This document shows, piece by piece, positions 20,704 through 64,000 of a stretch of 64,000 nucleotides of DNA. The notes under the pieces are model-generated. The model saw only the letters and a program-made list of their open reading frames with translations, searched no databases and was not told the DNA's origin. The position numbers and the translations under genes are program-made. The DNA lies in NCBI GenBank assembly GCA_038845975.1, contig JAWBQF010000011.1, forward strand, positions 11,590-75,589, given 5' to 3'. The stretch is from Candidatus Methanomethylicia archaeon (GTDB lineage Archaea; Thermoproteota; Methanomethylicia; CALHIW01). Every line of letters starts with the position of its first letter. Position 1 is the first letter of the stretch.

Positions 20704-21333
20704 TTACTTCTTCAGCATTTTCTTTACAGCTTCACTAAATTCCTTACCAGATCCGATCACTAATAGTAAATCTCCCTTAGTAACCACATTGTCATCAGCT
20801 GGTTTTCCATTACGTATAAGAACTACCTTAATATTTTCATCTTCTACAATGCTTGTTGGACTTCTAAATTTTAATACTGAAAAATTAAATCCACATTCAT
20901 CCTCTTTAAGGATTGGTATACAGCCATGTTGTCTTATTTTTAATTCAAGAACTCTTAATGCTAAACCTATAGGATCAAGTACTATATCTGCTCCTGACTT
21001 TTTTATTATTTCAGAGTTTAAAGGATTATTAACAACTCCAATAACAAAAGGTACACCATAAACTCTTTTAGCAGCTTCGCATAGCCTAATGTTTAAAGTA
21101 TCTATTTCCGTTGATGCGACAAATACGTCGCAAATTGAAATGTTTGCCTTTTCAAATGTTTTAGGATTCTCTAGATCACCCCATAGAGGTTCAGCATTAA
21201 ATTGTTTAGCTATAACTGTAGCTCTCTCCTGACTTCTTTCAATAATAGTGATTATTGCCTTTTTATCAGATGAAACTATAGTTCTTAGAATAAACTGTGA
21301 TGTATGCCCACCCCCAACTACTATATACCTCAC
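20704..21333 (-). CDS. trkA: TrkA/RCK-family NAD-binding K+ transport regulator
   Basis: IVVGGG Rossmann motif, GD...ANISICDVFVAST, GADIVLDP. Confidence 0.8.
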   Translation of the reverse strand: MRYIVVGGGHTSQFILRTIVSSDKKAIITIIERSQERATVIAKQFNAEPLWGDLENPKTFEKANISICDVFVASTEIDTLNIRLCEAAKRVYGVPFVIGVVNNPLNSEIIKKSGADIVLDPIGLALRVLELKIRQHGCIPILKEDECGFNFSVLKFRSPTSIVEDENIKVVLIRNGKPADDNVVTKGDLLLVIGSGKEFSEAVKKMLKK

Positions 21334-22052
21334 TTAGATTCACCAATTTTTTCTGGAATAGTTTTGATATACCTATCATAACCTATTCTATCTATTTTCC
21401 CATCTATCATAGCCCTTGTAAGTATAGCTTTAGCCACATCATAAGCCATATCTGTTAGTAAATAGAGAGGCTTCATATCATGGTCTTTAAATCCTATATT
21501 AACCTCAACAATTTTAACCCCCTTCTTATAAAGATCTATAAGAATACCGATATCTACTCCCCAATCCTCCTCAAAACTTACGGATAAGAAAACACTTTTA
21601 AGCCCAGCTATTTCACCACTTAAGGGCTGACTAAACGATATTAACTCCGGATAAAACATTCTAAGTAGTGGTCTTGCAACAAGCTCCGTAACTCTACCTG
21701 CTTTCCTTCCAAATGCTCCCTTGACAAAGTCCGCTTCTCCATTAACAATTGGTTTAGTAAGACTTAAAATCATTGAGGAATCCAGATTTTTTATATCAGC
21801 ATCTAAAAAGACAATTATACTTCCCCTAGCGTAGTACACTCCATCCCTCATAGCTATGCCCTTTCCTGGATACTTTAGATTACTTTGATAAACTACATGA
21901 GCACCTGCTTTCAATGCTTTTTTAACAGTATTATCTGTACTTCCCCCGTCAATAACAATAACCTCCATAACATTTTGAGTTCTCTTAGCTATTTTGACGT
22001 TTCTCTCAATAAATTTCTCCTCATTCTTTGCTGGAAAGCAAACACTAATCAT
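21330..22052 (-). CDS. Glucosyl-/mannosyl-3-phosphoglycerate synthase-like glycosyltransferase (GpgS family)
   Basis: PAKNEE, PGKGIAM, FLDADI, FVKG.FGRKAGRVTELVARPLL, QPLSGEIAG, WGVDIG. Confidence 0.78.
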   Translation of the reverse strand: MISVCFPAKNEEKFIERNVKIAKRTQNVMEVIVIDGGSTDNTVKKALKAGAHVVYQSNLKYPGKGIAMRDGVYYARGSIIVFLDADIKNLDSSMILSLTKPIVNGEADFVKGAFGRKAGRVTELVARPLLRMFYPELISFSQPLSGEIAGLKSVFLSVSFEEDWGVDIGILIDLYKKGVKIVEVNIGFKDHDMKPLYLLTDMAYDVAKAILTRAMIDGKIDRIGYDRYIKTIPEKIGESK

Positions 22053-22294
22053 AAGTTACATAGATATTCATTATTAAAAATTTTACTACATCTATATAGT
22101 TTTTGTAGCTTTAGATATGAAAACATCACGATTATGACCTAAATTCATGGAGAACTAACAGTCAGAAGAAGTTTAAATATTCTGACAGTTAATTGTAAGC
22201 CTTAATCTGATAACTTGATGGAAACTACAGTTAGAAGTAATAAACATGGATTCACATAGCAGAAAACTAGATAGTTAAGTTTTTATATTTTCTA

Positions 22295-23255
22295 GCTTTG
22301 TGGCTTAATTCTTTGTTGTCTAGGTTTCTTCCTTGATTTATGTTTCTTTTTTGATTTTGCTTTATAGGTTTATTAGCATGTTGTATATGTATGCTTGGCT
22401 TCTAGTTCTTTCTTTATGCTTTCCATGTTTTTTGCCATGCAGTATTCTCCATACTGGCGTTTGAATGTTGAGAATGTTGTTTCAACAGCCCAACGTCTAC
22501 CGTAGCCCACCATCCCCGCCTATCCTTCATCACCCACCTTTTTGATAAGCCTAACCGCTCTACGTCTCTCCAGGGACCTCTATCATCTCTAGCGTTACGT
22601 CTAGGCTTGATGATGGGTTTTACACCCATCCCTCTAAGGAGATTGTAGACTTCAGAATTATCGTAAGCTCCATCCATAACAGCTTCAGAAACCCTCCCTA
22701 GAGGCATCGTTGATTAATTCTGGTAGAGATTCTGAGTCGTGAACGTCATCTGTGGTTACCTCCATAGCTAAACCTCCCTAGTCTTAACGTTTACTGCGAA
22801 GTGGATCTTAATGTAGCGCTTCTTCTTGCCGTGTACGCGCGTAACCCATCCACCAGACTTATGCTAACACCGCTTGAGTCAACAGCTATAGTAATAGGGC
22901 CTCTTGAAACCCTCAGCGTGTAAAGATGGGTTAAGCATTAATATACGTCTCCTAACCCAAGAGTAATCAACTGATGGAGGGATAAGCCTATTTAAAGCCC
23001 TAGTGAAGCCTTCAAGCTGTCTGTAAGGCATCGAGAAGAGATAACGTACAACGGTGAGGAATTCAACATACCTAACGGTAATCTTGAAGGGGCAGCTACC
23101 TTACCACGATTCAAATCCATAAGCTCAACATCATAGCCTTCAGAAATTCCAAGCCAAGTAGAAGCTCACCACGCCTAACAAGCCTCTCATCAACAACAGA
23201 CCAATACATAAATTAAAGTAAAACATAAGAAACTTAAAGAATTAAGCCACAAAGC
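22295..23255 (-). mobile_element. IS5-family (IS903-group) element, frameshifted
   Basis: TIRs GCTTTGTGGCTTAATT and AATTAAGCCACAAAGC. ATTTTCT duplicated in the flanks. Transposase fragments IAVDSSG, IKIHFAV, MDGAYD. Confidence 0.88.
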
Positions 23256-23289
23256 AATTTTCTTACTAATCACATTTGCAAATTTTCGA

Positions 23290-23590
23290 TTTTGAGCTTA
23301 ATGAAGAGTTTAACAAGGTAGTTTCGAAAAGTAAAATTATGGTTATTACCTCTATGGCAAATAGTGTTTATCACGTAAATTTACAGTCCAGTATTTAGTA
23401 AGGTATACTGGTAAAGTTTTATTTGTGAAGTTGATGTTTATAGTGTTCATGAAACATTTTCAAGATATGGTATATTATATAGTGCCTAATAACACTTGTT
23501 ATTGCTAATGGCAAGATTGTAGAGAAATTATAGGTATTATTCCAGAAGCTGAACTTTAAAATCAGCTAGAACAGCATATTATTGAAATAA
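23290..23590 (+). pseudogene. Thioredoxin pseudogene
   Basis: Fragments EFNKVVSKSKIMV, YTGKVLFVK, ETFSRYGI, LVIANGKIV, EIIGIIPEAEL. The WCxxC site is degraded. Confidence 0.55.
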
Positions 23591-23853
23591 ATAATTTAAA
23601 TTCAGGACTATGTATTTCAACTACTTATTAAATTCATATTTTAGGTAACACTACCTCTAAGGAAAGTTAGAATTCTAAACTTAAACTAATGTAATAATAT
23701 TCTCACCATACTTTTTAAATGAATTCGTTTAATTCTTAAGTAATTATAGTAAAGATTGTTTAGTCTATGTAGATTCAAGTATTACTTAGGAATTCCGAAT
23801 TAGAAAATCATCTTAACTATTTAGTGTTTTCTAGCCGTTTACCTGTAATTAAT

Positions 23854-23886
23854 AGGTTAAAGATATTTGTCCAATAAGTTTATAAG
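23854..23886 (+). promoter_or_regulatory. Putative aro operon promoter: Tar-box-like site directly upstream of a TATA box
   Basis: AGGTTA-N8-TGTCCA (23854-23873) followed by TTTATAAG (23879-23886). Confidence 0.5.
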
Positions 23887-23926
23887 CTCATCCTCTCTTA
23901 AATAAGGAAGTTGTGGTGGAGGTGCT

Positions 23927-23983
23927 ATGAATAGCCAATACCAATTTCAAGAAGTAACAATACTACTAATCAGCATATATTAG
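23927..23983 (+). CDS. 18-aa leader ORF MNSQYQFQEVTILLISIY, or frameshifted true start of the next gene
   Basis: Strong SD GGAGGTG at 23918-23924, ATG at 23927, TAG at 23981-23983. Confidence 0.45.
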   Translation: MNSQYQFQEVTILLISIY

Positions 23984-24003
23984 GTAGTTTAAGAAATATT
24001 ATA

Positions 24004-25071
24004 TTGAAAGCTTTAAATAGGAATCAAATACTTCTACTATCTAAAATCAATGAAAATTCTGAGAGTACAATAACCTCTCTTCTAACAAAGCTATCTAATG
24101 AACTGGATATTCCTCTTTCAACATTAAAGTTTAATGCTAAAATTTTAAAATCGTTAAATCTTATAGAGTTTAAGCAGAATGATAAGGCTAGAATTGTCTG
24201 CTTATCGGAAGCAGGTAAATTCATACTTAACATAGTTAACTTACAGTTTAACGAGAATTACTTATCTATTATTAAAAATCTATCTGAAGCTAAACTTATC
24301 TTTCCAAGTATTTCTCAATCGAGAACTTTTCTTGAAGAGCCTCTTTTAAACAATCTTAAAGCTATAGCCTCAAGAATTAGAGAGAATGTTGTAAGGATGA
24401 TTTCTGAAGCCGGTTCAGGACATCTTGGAGCTTCTCTTTCTATTATTGATATTCTTGTAGTTTTATATTTTCTTAAAATTAAACATGATCCAAAAAATCC
24501 ATCATGGTCTGAACGTGACAGGGTAATATTAAGTAAGGGACATGCAGCTCCAGCCTTATATGCTGTTCTAGCTGAATGTGGCTATTTCCCAACATCCTTA
24601 CTAAGTAGTTTAAGAAGAATTGATAGCTTCTTACAGGGACATCCTGAAGTATACATACCTGGTATTGATATGGTTTCAGGATCTTTAGGTCAGGGTTTAT
24701 CAATAGCTAACGGTATGGCATTATCATTTAGGCTTAATGGTAAGAACAATCGAGTATATGTTATCATGGGCGATGGTGAATTAAATGAGGGTCAGGTATG
24801 GGAGGCTGCCTTAACATCAAGCCATTTAATGCTTGACAATATTACAGTTATAATAGATAGAAATGGTTTTCAACAGGAGGGATCTACTGAAAATATTAAG
24901 AGACTTGAACCTCTAGCTGAGAAGTGGAAGGCTTTTGGATGGCACGCCATAGAGATTGATGGACATGATTTAAATCAAATAATAGCTGCCTTAAATGAAG
25001 CTGAACTTACTAAGGGTTATCCAACAGTTATAATTGCTCATACAATTAAGGGTTTTCAGCAGAATTATTGA
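24004..25071 (+). CDS. Winged-helix (Tar-like) domain fused to transketolase N-terminal (TPP-binding) subunit
   Basis: Residues ~1-80 form a wHTH (IPLSTLKFNAKILKSLNLIE...LSEAGK). Then SGHLGASLS, DRVILSKGHAAP, LQGHP, GSLGQG, GDGELNEG. Confidence 0.88.
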   Translation: MKALNRNQILLLSKINENSESTITSLLTKLSNELDIPLSTLKFNAKILKSLNLIEFKQNDKARIVCLSEAGKFILNIVNLQFNENYLSIIKNLSEAKLIFPSISQSRTFLEEPLLNNLKAIASRIRENVVRMISEAGSGHLGASLSIIDILVVLYFLKIKHDPKNPSWSERDRVILSKGHAAPALYAVLAECGYFPTSLLSSLRRIDSFLQGHPEVYIPGIDMVSGSLGQGLSIANGMALSFRLNGKNNRVYVIMGDGELNEGQVWEAALTSSHLMLDNITVIIDRNGFQQEGSTENIKRLEPLAEKWKAFGWHAIEIDGHDLNQIIAALNEAELTKGYPTVIIAHTIKGFQQNY

Positions 25072-25083
25072 AATGGTGTTTAA

Positions 25084-26016
25084 ATGAAATCTATTAGGGA
25101 AGAATTTGGTAAGGTGCTTACTAGCCTAGGTGCTAAATATAGTAATTTGGTAGTTCTTGATGCTGATTGTGGTTCTCATACTAAATCTAAGAATTTTTCA
25201 CAGAAATATCCTGAAAGGTTTTTCAATATTGGTATAAGTGAGCAAGATCTTGTCGGGATTGCTGCTGGATTAGCAGCATGCGGTAAAATTCCTATTGTTT
25301 CATGCTACTCGATGTTTTTAATGCGTGCATGGGAGCAGATTAGAAATACCATCGGTAGAGCTAATCTTAACGTTAAGCTTATCGCTACCCATGCTGGGGC
25401 ATCGCCACATGCTGATGGAAGCTCACATCAATGTTTTGAGGATCTATCTATTATGAGGGTTATCCCAAACATGACCGTAATAGCTCCAGCAGACTCTAAA
25501 TCTATGGCTTTACTTCTTGAAGAAGCTATAGATCTTAACGGTCCCATTTACATGAGGCTTGGAAGAGATGAAGTTCATGATGTATATGATAGTAATCCCC
25601 ATCTTGAAATAGGTAAAGCTAATACTATAGTTGATGGATCTGATGTTTCAATAATAGCTTCAGGAGTTCTAGTTTATGAGGCTTTAACAGCTTCTCAAAT
25701 GCTTAAAAGAGATGGAGTTAGTGCTAGTGTAATCGATCTTCATACAATTAAACCTATTGACACTAACATTATTGTTAATGAATCTAGGAAAACTGGTGCC
25801 TTAGTAACTGCTGAGGAACACAGCGTTATTGGAGGTCTTGGAAGCTCAGTTTCTGAAATTGTTGTCAGTGAGTATCCAGTACCCGTAGAAATGGTTGGTG
25901 TTAAAAATAGGTTTGGTGAGTCTTCACTTTCATATCGTGAGCTTCTTTTAAAGCTTGGATTAACAGCATCCAGTATTTATCATGCTGCTAGAAGGGTTTT
26001 ACTGAGGAAAAGGTGA
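25084..26016 (+). CDS. Transketolase C-terminal subunit
   Basis: RFFNIGISEQ, DGSSHQ, GPIYMRL, TIKPID, EEHSVIGGLGS. Confidence 0.93.
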   Translation: MKSIREEFGKVLTSLGAKYSNLVVLDADCGSHTKSKNFSQKYPERFFNIGISEQDLVGIAAGLAACGKIPIVSCYSMFLMRAWEQIRNTIGRANLNVKLIATHAGASPHADGSSHQCFEDLSIMRVIPNMTVIAPADSKSMALLLEEAIDLNGPIYMRLGRDEVHDVYDSNPHLEIGKANTIVDGSDVSIIASGVLVYEALTASQMLKRDGVSASVIDLHTIKPIDTNIIVNESRKTGALVTAEEHSVIGGLGSSVSEIVVSEYPVPVEMVGVKNRFGESSLSYRELLLKLGLTASSIYHAARRVLLRKR

Positions 26017-26020
26017 TTTA

Positions 26021-26854
26021 ATGAAGGATCTAAAACTTCTTAGTAAGAAAAGTATGGAGGATTTTATCATTGTTGATGTTAATGGCTTAAAGATAGGTAG
26101 TAATAGCATAGTCGTTATTGCCGGCCCCTGCTCTATTGAAAGTATTGATCAAGCCTTAGAGATAGCTAAAACAGTAAAAAGTTTTGGTGCTACTATTTTT
26201 AGAGGTGGAGCCTTTAAACCACGTACATCTCCATATAGTTTCCAGGGACTTGGAGTTGAAGGTCTTAAAATACTTTCAAGAGTAAGAGATGAAACAGGTC
26301 TCCCAGTTGTTACTGAGGTTATGGATACTAGGGATATAGATATTGTTTTAAAGTACTCTGATATACTTCAAGTTGGAGCTAGAAACATGCAGAATTTCCC
26401 TCTTCTTAAAGAGCTTGGGAAAATTAGAGCTCCAGTTATTCTTAAGAGGGGATTTATGTCAACTATTGAGGAGTGGTTATTAGCTGCTGAATATATTGCT
26501 CTTGGAGGAAATGACCAAATAATACTATGTGAAAGGGGTATACGGACATTTGAAAGGGCTACAAGAAATACTCTTGATCTAAGCTGTATTCCAATAGTTA
26601 AACAGCTATGTAGACTACCTGTAATTACGGATCCAAGCCATGCTACAGGTATTAGGGAGCTTGTTAAACCTATGGCTTTAGCATCCATAGCCGCTGGGGC
26701 TGATGGAATTATGGTTGAGGTACATAATAACCCTGATAAGGCATTAAGTGATGGTTTCCAATCTTTAACGTTTAGTGGCTTCAAGGATCTTATGGATGGA
26801 ATTGTTAAGATTTCAAAAGCTATTGGTAGGGGTATTATAGGATGTTTAGGCTAA
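26021..26854 (+). CDS. aroF: DAHP synthase (type I-beta)
   Basis: IAGPCSIES, GAFKPRTSPYSFQG, LCERGIRTFE, DPSH. Confidence 0.95.
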   Translation: MKDLKLLSKKSMEDFIIVDVNGLKIGSNSIVVIAGPCSIESIDQALEIAKTVKSFGATIFRGGAFKPRTSPYSFQGLGVEGLKILSRVRDETGLPVVTEVMDTRDIDIVLKYSDILQVGARNMQNFPLLKELGKIRAPVILKRGFMSTIEEWLLAAEYIALGGNDQIILCERGIRTFERATRNTLDLSCIPIVKQLCRLPVITDPSHATGIRELVKPMALASIAAGADGIMVEVHNNPDKALSDGFQSLTFSGFKDLMDGIVKISKAIGRGIIGCLG

Positions 26855-27918
26855 TATCTACAGTTCAGGTTAAAACATTGAGTAGATGTTATCCAGTATA
26901 TATAGGATTTAACCTATTGGATTTTCTTGATGTCTTCCTATCTAGACATGGTTTAAAAGGTAAGTTTGCATTGGTATCTCACAAGTCGTTAATGGATATT
27001 TATGGTGATAAAATAATATCCTCAATTAGTAGACTAGGCTTAGATACTATTATAATCGATATTCCTGAAGGAGAAGAGAGCAAGAGCTTTAATATGCTTA
27101 CACAGATATATGATGTACTTATTAATAATAGATTTGATAGATGGTCTACAGTTACTGCTTTTGGTGGTGGAGTTATTGGTGATTTAGCTGGGTTTGCAGC
27201 TGCAACATTTATGAGAGGTATAAATCTAGTGCAAATACCTTCAACTCTACTAGCTCAAGTTGATTCAAGCATTGGCGGTAAGGTTGCAATAGATTATAGA
27301 GGTAAGAACATTATCGGTGCATTTTACCAGCCAAATCTTGTTATAACGGATTTAAACTTATTAAAATCTCTATCTGTAAAGGAGTTTAGTTCAGGTCTTG
27401 CTGAGGTTATAAAGTATGGTGTTGTAATGGACCCTCAAATACTGGATATATTGGAGAATTACTCTAATCCTCTCCCAGATGATATTGTAGCTGAGCTTAT
27501 TACTAGGTCCTGTAGTTGTAAGGCTAGAATTGTTGAAGCTGATGAACGGGATGAGAAGGATATTAGGATAATATTGAATTTTGGGCATACTATTGGGCAT
27601 GCTATAGAGGTAGCGTCAAATTTTAAAATAAGTCATGGTGAAGCAGTAGCTATAGGTATGGTTTATGAGGCTAAGCTTTCAGTAATGCTAGGTTTTTTAG
27701 ATATAGACGTTGTAAATAGATTAATAGGTATATTGAGTAAGTTTGGCTTACCAATTTCAGTCAGCCAGTTAAATATTGAAAGAATTTTAAGTTCACTTAG
27801 TTACGATAAGAAGATAAAACATGGAAAAATAAGGCTTATTCTTCTTAAATCTGTAGGTAACCCTATTGTACATGATGATGTTCCAATAGATTCTATTAAA
27901 AGAGTCTTGGAGATGTAG
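26842..27918 (+). CDS. aroB: 3-dehydroquinate synthase
   Basis: GGGVIGDLAGF, STLLAQVDSSIGGK, LNFGHTIGHAIE, HGEAVAIG. Confidence 0.95.
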   Translation: MFRLISTVQVKTLSRCYPVYIGFNLLDFLDVFLSRHGLKGKFALVSHKSLMDIYGDKIISSISRLGLDTIIIDIPEGEESKSFNMLTQIYDVLINNRFDRWSTVTAFGGGVIGDLAGFAAATFMRGINLVQIPSTLLAQVDSSIGGKVAIDYRGKNIIGAFYQPNLVITDLNLLKSLSVKEFSSGLAEVIKYGVVMDPQILDILENYSNPLPDDIVAELITRSCSCKARIVEADERDEKDIRIILNFGHTIGHAIEVASNFKISHGEAVAIGMVYEAKLSVMLGFLDIDVVNRLIGILSKFGLPISVSQLNIERILSSLSYDKKIKHGKIRLILLKSVGNPIVHDDVPIDSIKRVLEM

Positions 27919-27921
27919 ATT

Positions 27922-28596
27922 ATGGGTGTTAAAATCTGTCCTGTAGTTACACGTTTCAACGATAATGTGATAAGCATAGCTAATAAATTTAAAATATTAG
28001 AGTTAAGAATAGATCTTGTAGGTAGCTTATGGGTTAATGTAGTTTCAAGAATAAAAACAGATTGGATTGCCACATGTAGACGTAGAGATCAAGGTGGAGC
28101 TTGGAGTGGTAGTGAAACGGATAGAATAAATATTTTAATGGAGGCTATTAGACATGGAGCAAAATTTATAGATATAGAGGATTCCACAAACGGTCTTCAT
28201 GAATTAGTAAAAATGTTTAAGTCTATGGGTGTCTTAGTTATAGTTTCACATCATGATTTTAACAATACTCCTGAGTTTAACCATATGGTAGATATTGTTA
28301 GGAGAGAGATTGAATTTGGAGCTGATATATGGAAGATAGCTACAACTGCAAATAGCTTTACTGACTGTTTAAATGTGTTGAGGCTTCTTAAGCTTTTCAG
28401 AAATACTCCTGGAATTGCTTTAGCTATGGGTAGCCATGGAGTATTGAGTAGAGTGCTTTCACCATTACTTAACGGCTTCTTAACATATGCTTCAATTGAA
28501 AAAGGAGATGAATCTGCACCAGGTCAATTAACAGTTAGTGAGCTATTAGAAATATATAGGCTTATAGGTGTTGAAGTTGATAGATGCGAAAACTAA
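27922..28596 (+). CDS. aroD: Type I 3-dehydroquinate dehydratase
   Basis: ELRID, TCRRRDQGG, SHHDF, KIA, SAPGQ. Confidence 0.92.
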   Translation: MGVKICPVVTRFNDNVISIANKFKILELRIDLVGSLWVNVVSRIKTDWIATCRRRDQGGAWSGSETDRINILMEAIRHGAKFIDIEDSTNGLHELVKMFKSMGVLVIVSHHDFNNTPEFNHMVDIVRREIEFGADIWKIATTANSFTDCLNVLRLLKLFRNTPGIALAMGSHGVLSRVLSPLLNGFLTYASIEKGDESAPGQLTVSELLEIYRLIGVEVDRCEN

Positions 28597-29428
28597 GGTT
28601 TACTGTTTAATTGGGGATCCTGTTGAACATTCTATTTCCCCATTAATATTCAATACTGTATTTAAGCATCTTGGCTTAAATAGTGTTTATATAACATTTC
28701 ATGTTAAACCTGAAAATCTAGAGAGTGCTATTAATGGATTTAAAGCTATTGGTGTTAAGGGTTTTAATGTAACTATACCTCATAAGGTTCGAATAACTAA
28801 ACTAGTAGATTATGTTGATGCTAAAGCTCAGCTTATAAATGCTGTGAACGTTGTTAGTAATTGTAACGGTATATTGAAGGGATACAATACTGATGGATGT
28901 GGTGCCTTAAAAGCTCTTAAAAGCTTTAATGTTATAGTTAGTGGTAAAACAGTTACCTTAGTAGGCGCTGGTGGTGCTTCAAGAGCTATAGCATTCGCAA
29001 TAGCCTATGAAAACCCTGAAAAAATCTATATAGTTAATAGAACTTTAACTAGAGCTGAAGAGCTAGCTTATAGTTTAAAAAGTAGGGTTAATGCTAAACC
29101 ATGTAGCTTTAATGATCTATATGCTTTTAGAGAGGCTGATATTATTATAAATTGTACTCCAGTCGGTATGTATCCTAATGTTAATGAATCCCCATTTGAT
29201 TGTAGTCTCTTAAAGAATGAATGCGTAGTTATGGATATAGTTTACAATCCTGTTGAAACTAAGCTTTTAAGGGAGGCTAAAGCTTTAGGTTTAAAAACTA
29301 TAGATGGTGTACCAATGCTCATATATCAAGCAGCTTTAGCGTTTAAAATATGGATGAATCAATATCCTCCCATTGATTTAATGATGGCTACAGCTTATAG
29401 AGCTTTAGGTGTTAGCAATGTATCGTAA
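28568..29428 (+). CDS. aroE: Shikimate dehydrogenase
   Basis: GDPVEHSISP, NVTIPHK, GYNTD, GAGGA, DIVYNP. Confidence 0.95.
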   Translation: MLKLIDAKTKVYCLIGDPVEHSISPLIFNTVFKHLGLNSVYITFHVKPENLESAINGFKAIGVKGFNVTIPHKVRITKLVDYVDAKAQLINAVNVVSNCNGILKGYNTDGCGALKALKSFNVIVSGKTVTLVGAGGASRAIAFAIAYENPEKIYIVNRTLTRAEELAYSLKSRVNAKPCSFNDLYAFREADIIINCTPVGMYPNVNESPFDCSLLKNECVVMDIVYNPVETKLLREAKALGLKTIDGVPMLIYQAALAFKIWMNQYPPIDLMMATAYRALGVSNVS

Positions 29429-63468: not shown

Positions 63469-64000
63469 GCTTTGTGGCTTAATTAATTTTGGTTTATTGA
63501 ATCTTTAGTTTATGGATTGGAGGGTTGTTGATGAGTGTTTGATTAGGTGTGGTGAGCTTCTTCTTAGCCTGGAATTTCTGAAGGCTATGATGTTGAGCTT
63601 ATGGATTTGAATCGTGGTAAGGTAGCTGCCCCTTCAAGATTACCGTTAGGTATGTTGAATTCCTTATGGTTGTACGTTATCTCTTCTCAATGCCTTACAG
63701 GCAGCTTGAAGGCTTCACTAGGGCTTTGAACAGGCTTATCCCTTCCATCAGCAGACTACTCATGGATTAGGAGACGTATATTAACGCTTAACCCATCTTT
63801 ATACGATTCGTTGAGGGTTTCCAACGAGCCAGTCACTATAGCCGTAGACTCGAGTGGTGTTAGCGTCCATAAGTCCGGCGGATGGGTTACACGTATGCAT
63901 GGGAGGAGGAAGCGCTATATCAAGATCCACTTCGCAGTAGACGTTAAGACTAAGGAGGTTTTAGCTATGGAGGTAACCACGGACGATTTCCACGACTCGG
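63469..64000 (+). mobile_element. IS5-family (IS903-group) element, frameshifted, runs off the window
   Basis: TIR GCTTTGTGGCTTAATT at 63469. MDWRVVDE...IAVDSSG...IKIHFAVDVKTKE. Confidence 0.88.

Follow-up and report, generated by a model that had tools for sequence, protein, structure and literature searches.

An out-of-frame start and an exchangeable sensor codon at the head of Tar-like regulator genes suggest a frameshift switch for tRNA charging in Archaea

How is the first gene of an aromatic amino acid (aro) operon translated when the start codon that follows the Shine-Dalgarno (SD) sequence in front of it opens another reading frame? The question is raised by a stretch of 64,000 nucleotides (nt) from a Candidatus Methanomethylicia archaeon (GenBank assembly GCA_038845975.1, contig JAWBQF010000011.1, positions 11,590 to 75,589 of the forward strand), hereafter the window. 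The gene encodes a winged helix-turn-helix (wHTH) regulator fused to half a transketolase and overlaps a short leader open reading frame (ORF) with aromatic codons, and an earlier reading of the window (the original prediction) had proposed that hungry aromatic codons in this leader gate the synthesis of the activator by frameshifting, reinitiation or attenuation, and that amino acid sensing is provided in this way for a small Tar-like domain with no evident ligand pocket. Having compared the start region across a large family of related loci, we consider it likely that the activator is made by a starvation-dependent -1 shift at a C-CAA-XXX motif, whenever the aminoacyl-tRNA for the codon XXX is scarce.

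The wHTH of the protein, at about residues 19-103, matches the NCBIfam hidden Markov model (HMM) NF053753, "TK0271 family transcriptional activator", with an E-value of 1.7e-20 and 73 bits when the N-terminal 135 residues are used as query, and with 74.2 bits in a scan of the genome, which falls short of the curated cut-off of 130 bits; residues 143-375 form the N-terminal, thiamine pyrophosphate-binding half of a transketolase (PF00456, E-value 2.4e-50). Judged from its sequence, the regulator is a clear homologue of TK0271/Tar, yet stands outside the curated family. Like Tar it belongs to an aro operon, of which the fused gene is the first member.

The start region of the window reads GGAGGTG, CT, ATG and then AAT AGC CAA TAC CAA TTT CAA, continuing to TAG 23981-83, and the leader ORF is translated as MNSQYQFQEVTILLISIY, with Tyr5, Phe7 and Tyr18. 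The first ATG, GTG or TTG of the regulator frame is TTG 24004, which has no GGTG-type SD within the 25 bases upstream of it and which is probably not the main start of the regulator. Since the regulator frame is closed by a TAG directly before CCA, there is no entry to that frame upstream of 23935. Neither candidate site (C-CAA-TAC or C-CAA-TTT) contains an X XXY YYZ slippery heptamer, and at both of them the P-site tRNA alone should be able to re-pair, at two of the three positions. In all these respects, namely the SD, the ATG and its 18-codon ORF with three aromatic residues, the regulator frame open back to 23935, a TTG with no clear SD and no canonical heptamer, the original prediction had described the sequence correctly. 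From the usual archaeal distance between TATA box and transcription start, transcription is expected to begin at about 23905-23912, which would leave the mRNA with a short leader.

Table 1. Features of the regulator-transketolase locus (positions in the window).
Feature	Position	Strand	Remarks
Tar-box-like palindrome AGGTTA-N8-TGTCCA	23854..23873	.	ends 5 nt upstream of the TATA box; from the sequence and the family consensus
TATA box TTTATAA	23879..23885	+	position kept in the sister genome G001 and across the family
Shine-Dalgarno GGAGGTG	23918..23924	+	2 nt before the ATG; ends 10 nt before candidate shift site 1
Leader ORF, frame 0	23927..23983	+	ATG 23927, 18 codons, TAG 23981-83; first 7 codons alone conserved
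Regulator-frame TAG stop directly before CCA	23932..23934	+	same arrangement in 4 regions: window, L078, L093, L171
Candidate shift site 1, C-CAA-TAC	23935..23941	+	Gln codon in P site, Tyr sensor in A site; -1 frame CCA-ATA
Candidate shift site 2, C-CAA-TTT	23941..23947	+	Phe sensor codon; -1 frame CCA-ATT
Main ORF, 378 codons	23935..25071	+	-1 frame relative to ATG 23927; Tar/TK0271-like wHTH and transketolase N-half
TTG picked as start by ORF callers	24004..24006	+	conserved Leu codon within the N-terminal helix
Rest of the aro operon	25084..29428	+	transketolase C-half, DAHP synthase, 3-dehydroquinate synthase, dehydroquinase I, shikimate dehydrogenase

An interrupted frame with no slippery heptamer is also what one would see in a broken gene, whether through pseudogenization, an indel or an assembly error, and the original prediction had kept an indel or sequencing error as a real alternative. 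The stretch is present in hot-spring metagenome runs from 7 studies, and positions 23800-24125, which include the span 23927-23990 that the original prediction had singled out for verification, are spanned by contigs of three runs belonging to other studies, and these show neither a difference nor a gap. These identical contigs exclude an indel or sequencing error. Moreover, the downstream frame runs unbroken for 378 codons, its transketolase motifs are complete, and the same layout recurs in another species and in 121 of 132 family regions, so that a broken gene has practically no chance of being the explanation. As a separate observation, the contigs of two runs (X10 and X11) break at 23963-23981, within the overlap of leader and regulator, while a third run spans it and no differing letters are reported; the breaks may reflect nearby strain variation.

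The other species is represented by G001, a Candidatus Methanomethylicia metagenome-assembled genome (MAG) and the only other genome of the genus in the collection, with 87% amino acid identity. Its layout is GGAGGTGCT-ATG, followed by an 18-codon ORF (MESQYQFQQVTILSISMY) and the regulator in the -1 frame. There the regulator frame is open upstream through the TATA box and beyond, which is why the gene caller reports a product of 402 residues. More generally, regulator genes of this kind are systematically mis-annotated: the four homologues in the protein collection carry four different annotated N-termini, two of which start upstream of the Tar-box/TATA region.

To see how far the arrangement extends, we assembled family loci by alignment of the N-terminal domains: 80 from metagenome contigs (the best 80 of 82 relatives), 73 from GTDB genomes, and the window, G001 and G036. 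After removal of identical upstream regions and of rows at contig ends, 132 distinct regions were left (individual loci are denoted by L or G numbers below). The genome loci come from Bathyarchaeia, Aenigmatarchaeota, Micrarchaeota, Nitrososphaeria, Geothermarchaeota, Thermoplasmata, Marsarchaeota, Nanoarchaeota, Methanodesulfokora and Desulfurococcales; some members are transketolase fusions and the majority are stand-alone proteins of about 100-150 residues. A region was counted as carrying the motif if C-CAA, with CCA lying in the regulator frame, comes after an ATG or GTG in the +1 frame and no stop intervenes. This holds for 121 of the 132 regions (ATG in 100, GTG in 21), three of which (L103, L118 and L045) were judged mis-assigned by the script, leaving 118 in the position table. 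The distance from start to CCA is 5 nt in 76 regions, which makes CAA the fourth codon, and 2, 8, 11, 14 or 17 nt in most others, with a G-rich GGTG/GTG signal visible upstream. The original prediction had expected to fall if relatives carried the ATG in frame with the regulator or lacked the aromatic codons. In an alignment of the 5' regions, conservation of the out-of-frame start and of the aromatic codons reaches well outside the genus, and a start in frame with the regulator is found in only one region of the 132, L080 (ATG-N5-CCAATAC).

The 11 regions without the motif include, besides L080 and L125, a contig edge (L060), a deletion variant (L070), two unclear cases (L162 and L164) and four with an in-frame ATG of their own (L079, L100, L154 and L163), of which L079 alone among the regions without the motif has CCAG in its place; L146, which the script anchored wrongly, actually has ATG-GCTAG-CCAACAC. 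Several variants of the module deserve a separate mention. In L049/L059/L091 and in L056, the whole start module is tandemly duplicated, with ATG-N5-CCAATA(T/C) followed by ATG-N5-CCAATTT, which amounts to one Tyr and one Phe sensor reached by a route other than the tandem CCAAT of the window. The TyrRS-linked locus L125 (TyrRS, tyrosyl-tRNA synthetase) has C-CTC-TAC in place of C-CAA-TAC, which may be a variant with a Leu codon in the P site and the same re-pairing at first and third positions. Finally, the archaeal regulator also turns up at L139, L159 and L165, whose MAGs carry the labels Patescibacteria, Aquificota and Saccharimonadales; wrong binning or wrong labels are a more probable cause than bacterial carriers.

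The codon that follows CAA in frame 0, which we call the sensor codon, is drawn from a narrow set. Among the 118 regions it encodes Tyr in 71, Phe in 23, His in 16, Pro in 7 and Trp in 1, and a second, tandem C-CAA-XXX is present in 18 regions (Tyr 12, Phe 4, Trp 2), 16 of which combine Tyr with Phe in either order while the other 2 have Tyr or Phe followed by Trp. Its third base is C or T in 112 of the 118 regions, while the regulator-frame residue that overlaps it varies between P, R, C, W, L and S, a combination that points to selection on the frame-0 codon. In every motif member Gln is encoded by CAA, a C and CAA being part of the motif definition; CAA makes up less than 40% of the Gln codons in nearby long ORFs of 53 out of 103 loci, and in the window CAA is counted 7 times against 12 for CAG. 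The base before CCAA, position 23934 in the window, is A in 28 regions, G in 46, T in 44 and C in 0 of 118, so the codon before Gln is never NCC.

The downstream reading frame, for its part, frequently lacks a start. No ATG, GTG or TTG is found in the regulator frame between the upstream stop and the wHTH in 58 of the 121 regions, and in another 28 such codons occur only downstream of CCA; conserved ORFs that overlap in a -1 relation, the second with no start of its own, are what one looks for in programmed ribosomal frameshifting (PRF). The zone in which the frame can change is tight. A regulator-frame stop stands directly before CCA in 4 regions and a frame-0 stop at +10 after CCA in 8, and if one mechanism serves all members, these close flanking stops place the change on C-CAA-XXX or on the next codon. 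This narrows the shift zone of the original prediction, 23935-23983, to 23935-23947; by the same token Tyr5 and Phe7 stand as candidate sensors, whereas Tyr18, in the non-conserved tail, has no role. Immediately after the site, the regulator frame shows the signature of coding: codon-position entropies downstream in two clean Bathyarchaeia clades are 4.39/2.19/7.91 (n=9) and 6.07/4.66/15.58 (n=16), highest at the third position as expected for coding in the -1 frame, whereas groups of mixed length carried no information and a small clade (n=5) gave the opposite, 7.49/4.58/4.33. Two codons after CCA, Ser is encoded by TCT, TCG or TCA, a synonymous variation, and in the alignment the distance from CCA to the wHTH differs by whole codons.

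These data bear directly on the proposal that the leader senses codons but that its output is not a frameshift, the regulator being made from TTG 24004 or another weak start by reinitiation or coupling, or the leader acting on transcription or mRNA stability. A TTG is present at the same place in the window, G001 and G036, and a GTG in L034, 18-21 nt after the leader stop; in the clade L097/L099/L102 an in-frame ATG lies 17 nt downstream of that stop, and a wHTH that begins at the TTG-encoded Leu would still be complete. On the other hand, 58 of the 121 regions offer no canonical in-frame start before the wHTH, even the close relative L035 has neither TTG nor GTG, and the leader stop lies anywhere between +10 and +73 counted from CCA (+97 in one row, which is mis-assigned). 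Moreover, the regulator frame is open exactly from CCA, its length from there to the wHTH changes by multiples of three and its coding signature begins two codons after CCA, which is upstream of the leader stop. We therefore regard this account as unlikely. Among the routes named by the original prediction, reinitiation at TTG is not general, because TTG or GTG is missing in many relatives and coding begins before the leader ends, while gating by a frameshift at hungry codons is supported by the conserved start and codons and by the match with neighbouring genes described below.

The window was also examined for attenuation and related devices. An Rfam scan of 21000-24200 gave 0 matches at the gathering score, hence no T-box or other known regulatory RNA, and a tRNA scan of the same positions found none. 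A leader with cognate codons is present, as attenuation would have it, but the regulator gene overlaps it from codon 3 on, which leaves no space for an attenuator. Two candidates of another kind were considered and rejected. One is pyrrolysine insertion or readthrough at TAG 23932, since the stop is TAG, TGA or TAA among members and AAG in G001; the other is a bulge-helix-bulge intron or transcriptional slippage, with only 5 nt between ATG and site and no homopolymer.

If the sensor codon reports on an amino acid, it should agree with what the neighbouring genes do, and this is what we observe for the aminoacyl-tRNA synthetases (aaRS) and the biosynthetic pathways alongside. All 16 class-Ib synthetases tested among the neighbours are tyrosine-tRNA ligases (NF006330, above cut-off); as L114 and L143 score identically to L044 and L082, they correspond to 14 distinct TyrRS-linked loci. 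Tyr is a C-CAA sensor in 10 of these 14, as the first sensor in L041, L044, L053, L054 (where the gene is divergent), L067, L082, L083, L144 and L147, the last of which also adjoins prephenate dehydrogenase, and as the second sensor, after Phe, in L152. TyrRS is also the neighbour of the in-frame exception L080, which likewise reads Gln-Tyr, and of L045, in which the motif has decayed and the regulator has its own ATG. All 5 loci linked to histidyl-tRNA synthetase (HisRS) or hisG have a His sensor: L127, L135, L146 and L167 precede a histidine-tRNA ligase (TIGR00442) and L145 precedes hisG. A Pro sensor is found in 6 of 9 loci linked to prolyl-tRNA synthetase (ProRS), namely L094, L071, L097/L099, L063, L132 and L181, while L100, L154 and L163 have no motif. 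For two of them, L132 (ornithine cyclodeaminase and ProRS) and L181 (ProRS), the neighbours were predicted blind from the leader and then confirmed. Clustering at 70% identity gives 19 aro-linked clusters, with either transketolase/DAHP synthase or the DeoC-aldolase/DHQS-II route alongside; all of them have a Tyr and/or Phe sensor, and L141 and L153, with Tyr, precede prephenate dehydratase or aminotransferase genes. In G062, three paralogues coexist in a single genome, one each with a Pro, a Tyr and a Phe sensor.

The match between codon and neighbour also speaks to two other ways of reading the conserved start. The first holds that CCAAT and the nearby ATG form a nucleic-acid signal, bound by protein or RNA and unrelated to decoding, of which the codon pattern is a by-product. 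Conservation at the nucleotide level across phyla would be natural for such a signal, as would the second DNA motif nearby, the Tar box. It does not, however, account for bases after CCAA that switch between Tyr, Phe, His, Pro and Trp in step with the neighbouring aaRS or pathway, for a start codon that keeps its frame at spacings of 2, 5, 8, 11, 14 and 17, or for wobble confined to C or T at the third base of the sensor codon, and we rate it as very unlikely. The second, whose chances are slimmer still, is that the regulator initiates at a near-cognate AUA or AUU, the Ile codon of Pro-Ile, through the upstream SD, the ATG-led ORF being incidental. In its favour, Ile follows Pro in most members, and GGTG stands 5 nt before the ATG in two of the three downstream genes that begin with ATG (25084 and 26021), as opposed to only 2 nt for ATG 23927. 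In the window, however, ATA 23938 is 13 nt after the SD, members with His or Pro sensors have ACA or ACC at this place, which are not near-cognate, and neither the retention of an out-of-frame ATG or GTG in 121 of 132 regions nor the codon-neighbour match would be explained.

Among the neighbours themselves, some conserved genes stood out. Those at L103:1251-2327, L161:3330-5072 and L046:1433-2266, with their relatives, belong to no Pfam or NCBIfam family, and His-sensor regulators are accompanied by a gene for a 278-residue phosphoribosyltransferase (PRT)-like protein and a SLOG-cluster4 gene. The ESM Atlas likens the neighbour of the Phe clade to amidinotransferases and that of the His clade to phosphoribosyltransferases; these likenesses serve as leads only.

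Further support for a Tar-like regulatory circuit comes from the promoter. TG[TC]CC is held by 79 of the 117 regions with enough upstream sequence, and the 77 aligned on it yield the operator consensus tGGnCA-N8-TGyCCA, 5-6 nt before TTTATA. Both this consensus and the window's palindrome resemble the T. kodakarensis Tar box, given as TGGACA-N8-TGTCCA in the accessible text of PMC6737238. The palindrome is the probable binding site of the activator itself, and its place at the gene's own promoter suggests autoregulation, by which a small frameshift product would amplify itself. The Tar likeness asserted by the original prediction is thus upheld, by an HMM match that lies below the curated cut-off and by an operator seen both in the window and across the family. 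There is also a tendency towards RNA structure downstream of the site: over the 50 nt that follow the sensor codon, z averages -1.40, compared with -0.13 and -0.06 in control stretches, z is below -2 in 34 of 117 regions as opposed to 5 and 7 in the controls, and in many clades a hairpin starts 6-8 nt after the sensor codon.

On the strength of the anatomy of the start region and its conservation, the sensor-neighbour match, the coding signature in the -1 frame and the operator motif, we propose the following mechanism. Ribosomes would initiate in the +1 frame, at the ATG 23927 that follows the SD, and decode Met-Asn-Ser-Gln, which would place tRNA-Gln on CAA in the P site while the A site shows TAC (Tyr) and, two codons later, after the second C-CAA, TTT (Phe). 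With plentiful charged tRNA, decoding would proceed in frame to TAG 23981 and yield only a useless 18-residue peptide. With Tyr-tRNA or Phe-tRNA scarce, the A site would be empty and the peptidyl-tRNA-Gln (anticodon UUG) could slip from CAA to CCA, re-pairing there at positions 1 and 3. The next codon would then consist of A and the first two bases of the sensor codon, specifying Ile, Thr or Met family-wide and Ile (ATA or ATT) in the window, and the ribosome would continue through the activator-transketolase frame. The activator would in turn bind the Tar-box-like palindrome beside its own TATA box and raise transcription, closing a positive feedback loop.

That the frame change is made by the ribosome, depends on starvation and comes about through P-site slippage is inferred, as is the protein's role as an activator of transcription. 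Two features expected of hungry-codon slippage can be pointed to: the A site holds a codon for the amino acid whose supply is at stake, as the neighbour match indicates, and the P-site tRNA should, from the pairing argument above, be able to re-pair in the -1 frame. A tRNA-Gln(UUG) is found in the genome, in an ARAGORN census that returned 16 tRNA genes without introns allowed and 26 with, an incomplete set too small to judge isoacceptors. An SD helix can aid a backward slip, as in dnaX, and that it assists the slip at the window site is speculation on our part. The two tandem sites, Tyr and Phe, would work as an OR gate, and this would fit the physiology of T. kodakarensis, in which all three operons are induced as soon as one of the aromatic amino acids is missing, according to the accessible text of PMC6737238.

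This leads us to the observations that weigh against a frameshift switch, either in the window or as a rule for the family. Some concern the site: it has no canonical heptamer, tRNA-Gln on CCA would be mismatched at the middle position, the transketolase N-half of the window would likewise depend on the frameshift, the 50 downstream nt are structured neither in the window (z -0.42) nor in G001 (z +0.62), and the carrier organism is uncultured. Others concern initiation. An in-frame ATG, GTG or TTG is found somewhere upstream of CCA in 35 of the 121 regions, and the entire Phe-sensor clade L092-L112 has GTG-GTG upstream in the regulator frame, which makes ordinary initiation possible for that clade. 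The TTG of the window, G001 and G036 and the GTG of L034, 6-9 nt before the wHTH anchor, could yield a shorter protein. L045, L079, L086, L100, L154 and L163 have an ATG of their own together with a decayed or absent motif and L080 is in frame, which shows that the regulator can do without the device; these seven look like evolutionary losses of the switch. The remainder concern the neighbours. L086 has a Trp sensor beside TyrRS, with Tyr two codons earlier and its own ATG; Bathyarchaeia Tyr-sensor clades adjoin a PAS histidine kinase or a protein of 570-580 residues that belongs to no family; the Phe clade L092-L112 adjoins an amidinotransferase-like protein of 359 residues, and some His-sensor members adjoin PRT-like, GNAT or M20 genes. 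The wHTH tree (74 rows, 82 columns, 10 of 71 branches starred) is poorly resolved, and its starred branches force only one origin per sensor class. For this reason the codon-neighbour argument rests not on counts of clusters but on four classes, Tyr, His, Pro and Tyr+Phe, each of which, as a safe statement from the sequences, matches a cognate neighbour function.

With these points in mind, we favour, with somewhat less assurance than the shift itself, a general reading in which TK0271-family regulators with C-CAA-XXX form a modular, codon-programmable sensor of tRNA charging, an archaeal counterpart of attenuation and the T-box. The A-site codon would decide, through -1 slippage of tRNA-Gln at about codon 4, whether the transcription activator is produced, and a change of one codon would retarget the switch to Tyr, Phe, Trp, His, Pro or possibly others. 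Genes for aaRS and for amino acid pathways would be under such control in Thermoproteota, DPANN, Thermoplasmatota and related lineages, and the question of how activators of the Tar type can sense amino acids that they do not bind would have an answer. The accessible text of PMC6737238 reports that 10 mM Trp, Tyr or Phe does not release Tar from DNA and that erythrose 4-phosphate at about 5 mM alone does, and explicitly leaves open how the absence of any single aromatic amino acid is recognized; in that text the words "frameshift" and "leader" have 0 occurrences.

Apart from the regulator, the window contains, upstream of the aro promoter, a 961-bp element at 22295-23255 that has perfect 20-nt terminal inverted repeats but lacks a long ORF. 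The window's genome contains 8 full-length copies of it at 82-100% identity, the one at 22295-23255 included, plus fragments, one of which lies at the end of the window, at about 63469-63998. G001 has 21 matches to the element, and its orthologous site is empty. It looks like a non-autonomous mobile element of the miniature inverted-repeat (MITE) type.

To our knowledge, it is largely unknown how archaea sense amino acid supply and control their aaRS and biosynthesis genes. If true, the switch proposed here would be a third general route, besides attenuation and T-boxes, by which tRNA charging is coupled to gene expression, and one that is small and reprogrammable. In leader attenuation of trp, his and pheA, and in T-boxes, charging is read from leader codons, or from the tRNA itself, and determines the expression of the cognate biosynthesis operon or aaRS gene, and the logic would be the same here. 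The means differ, however: the Rfam scan gives no tRNA-binding RNA, a terminator or antiterminator is no part of the proposal (no terminator scan was run), the output would be a frame change that creates an activator, and a single sensor codon takes the place of a run of codons. Closer in principle are prfB (RF2) and antizyme, in which slow decoding in the A site serves as sensor for a +1 shift, the product relieves the shortage and an SD-like element lies near the site. The slow A-site codon, the product that relieves the shortage and the SD-like element upstream would be shared; on the other hand, the shift there is +1, at a stop codon, and senses RF2 or polyamines, whereas here it would be -1, at a sense codon, would sense aminoacyl-tRNA and would yield a transcription factor, with a sensor codon that is exchangeable between paralogues.

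With T. kodakarensis Tar, the window regulator shares a homologous wHTH, its place as first gene of an aro operon and a palindrome of the TGGnCA-N8-TGnCCA type by the promoter. It differs in scoring 73 bits against a cut-off of 130, in its fusion to a transketolase N-half and in its out-of-frame start, Tar having been compared through the text of the paper. As for frameshifting in Archaea, the accessible text of a 2021 review (PMC8211752) counts fucA1 of Saccharolobus solfataricus as the only reported case of -1 PRF, archaeal virus cases aside; if true, our reading would add many cellular genes to this one. That case, too, is a cellular archaeal gene split into two -1-related ORFs; its heptamer is the classical A-AAA-AAT, the ORFs overlap by 40 bases in mid-gene, the gene is narrowly distributed and no role in sensing is known for it (PMC8211752, same text), whereas here the site is at codon 4, has no heptamer and is spread over many phyla. 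The same text describes the one-tRNA mechanism at hungry codons, in which limitation of aminoacyl-tRNA leaves the A site vacant and the P-site tRNA slips with an efficiency independent of a downstream stimulator (PMC8211752). There, slippage is triggered by starvation and is not presented as regulatory, whereas here it would be a conserved and selected regulatory device, and the first regulatory use of sense-codon hungry frameshifting among the literature found. Our literature searches, from whose coverage most subscription journals were absent, returned no description of such an arrangement. Overall, the ingredients, frameshifting and hungry-codon slippage, are known, while the architecture and the use to which it would be put are new.

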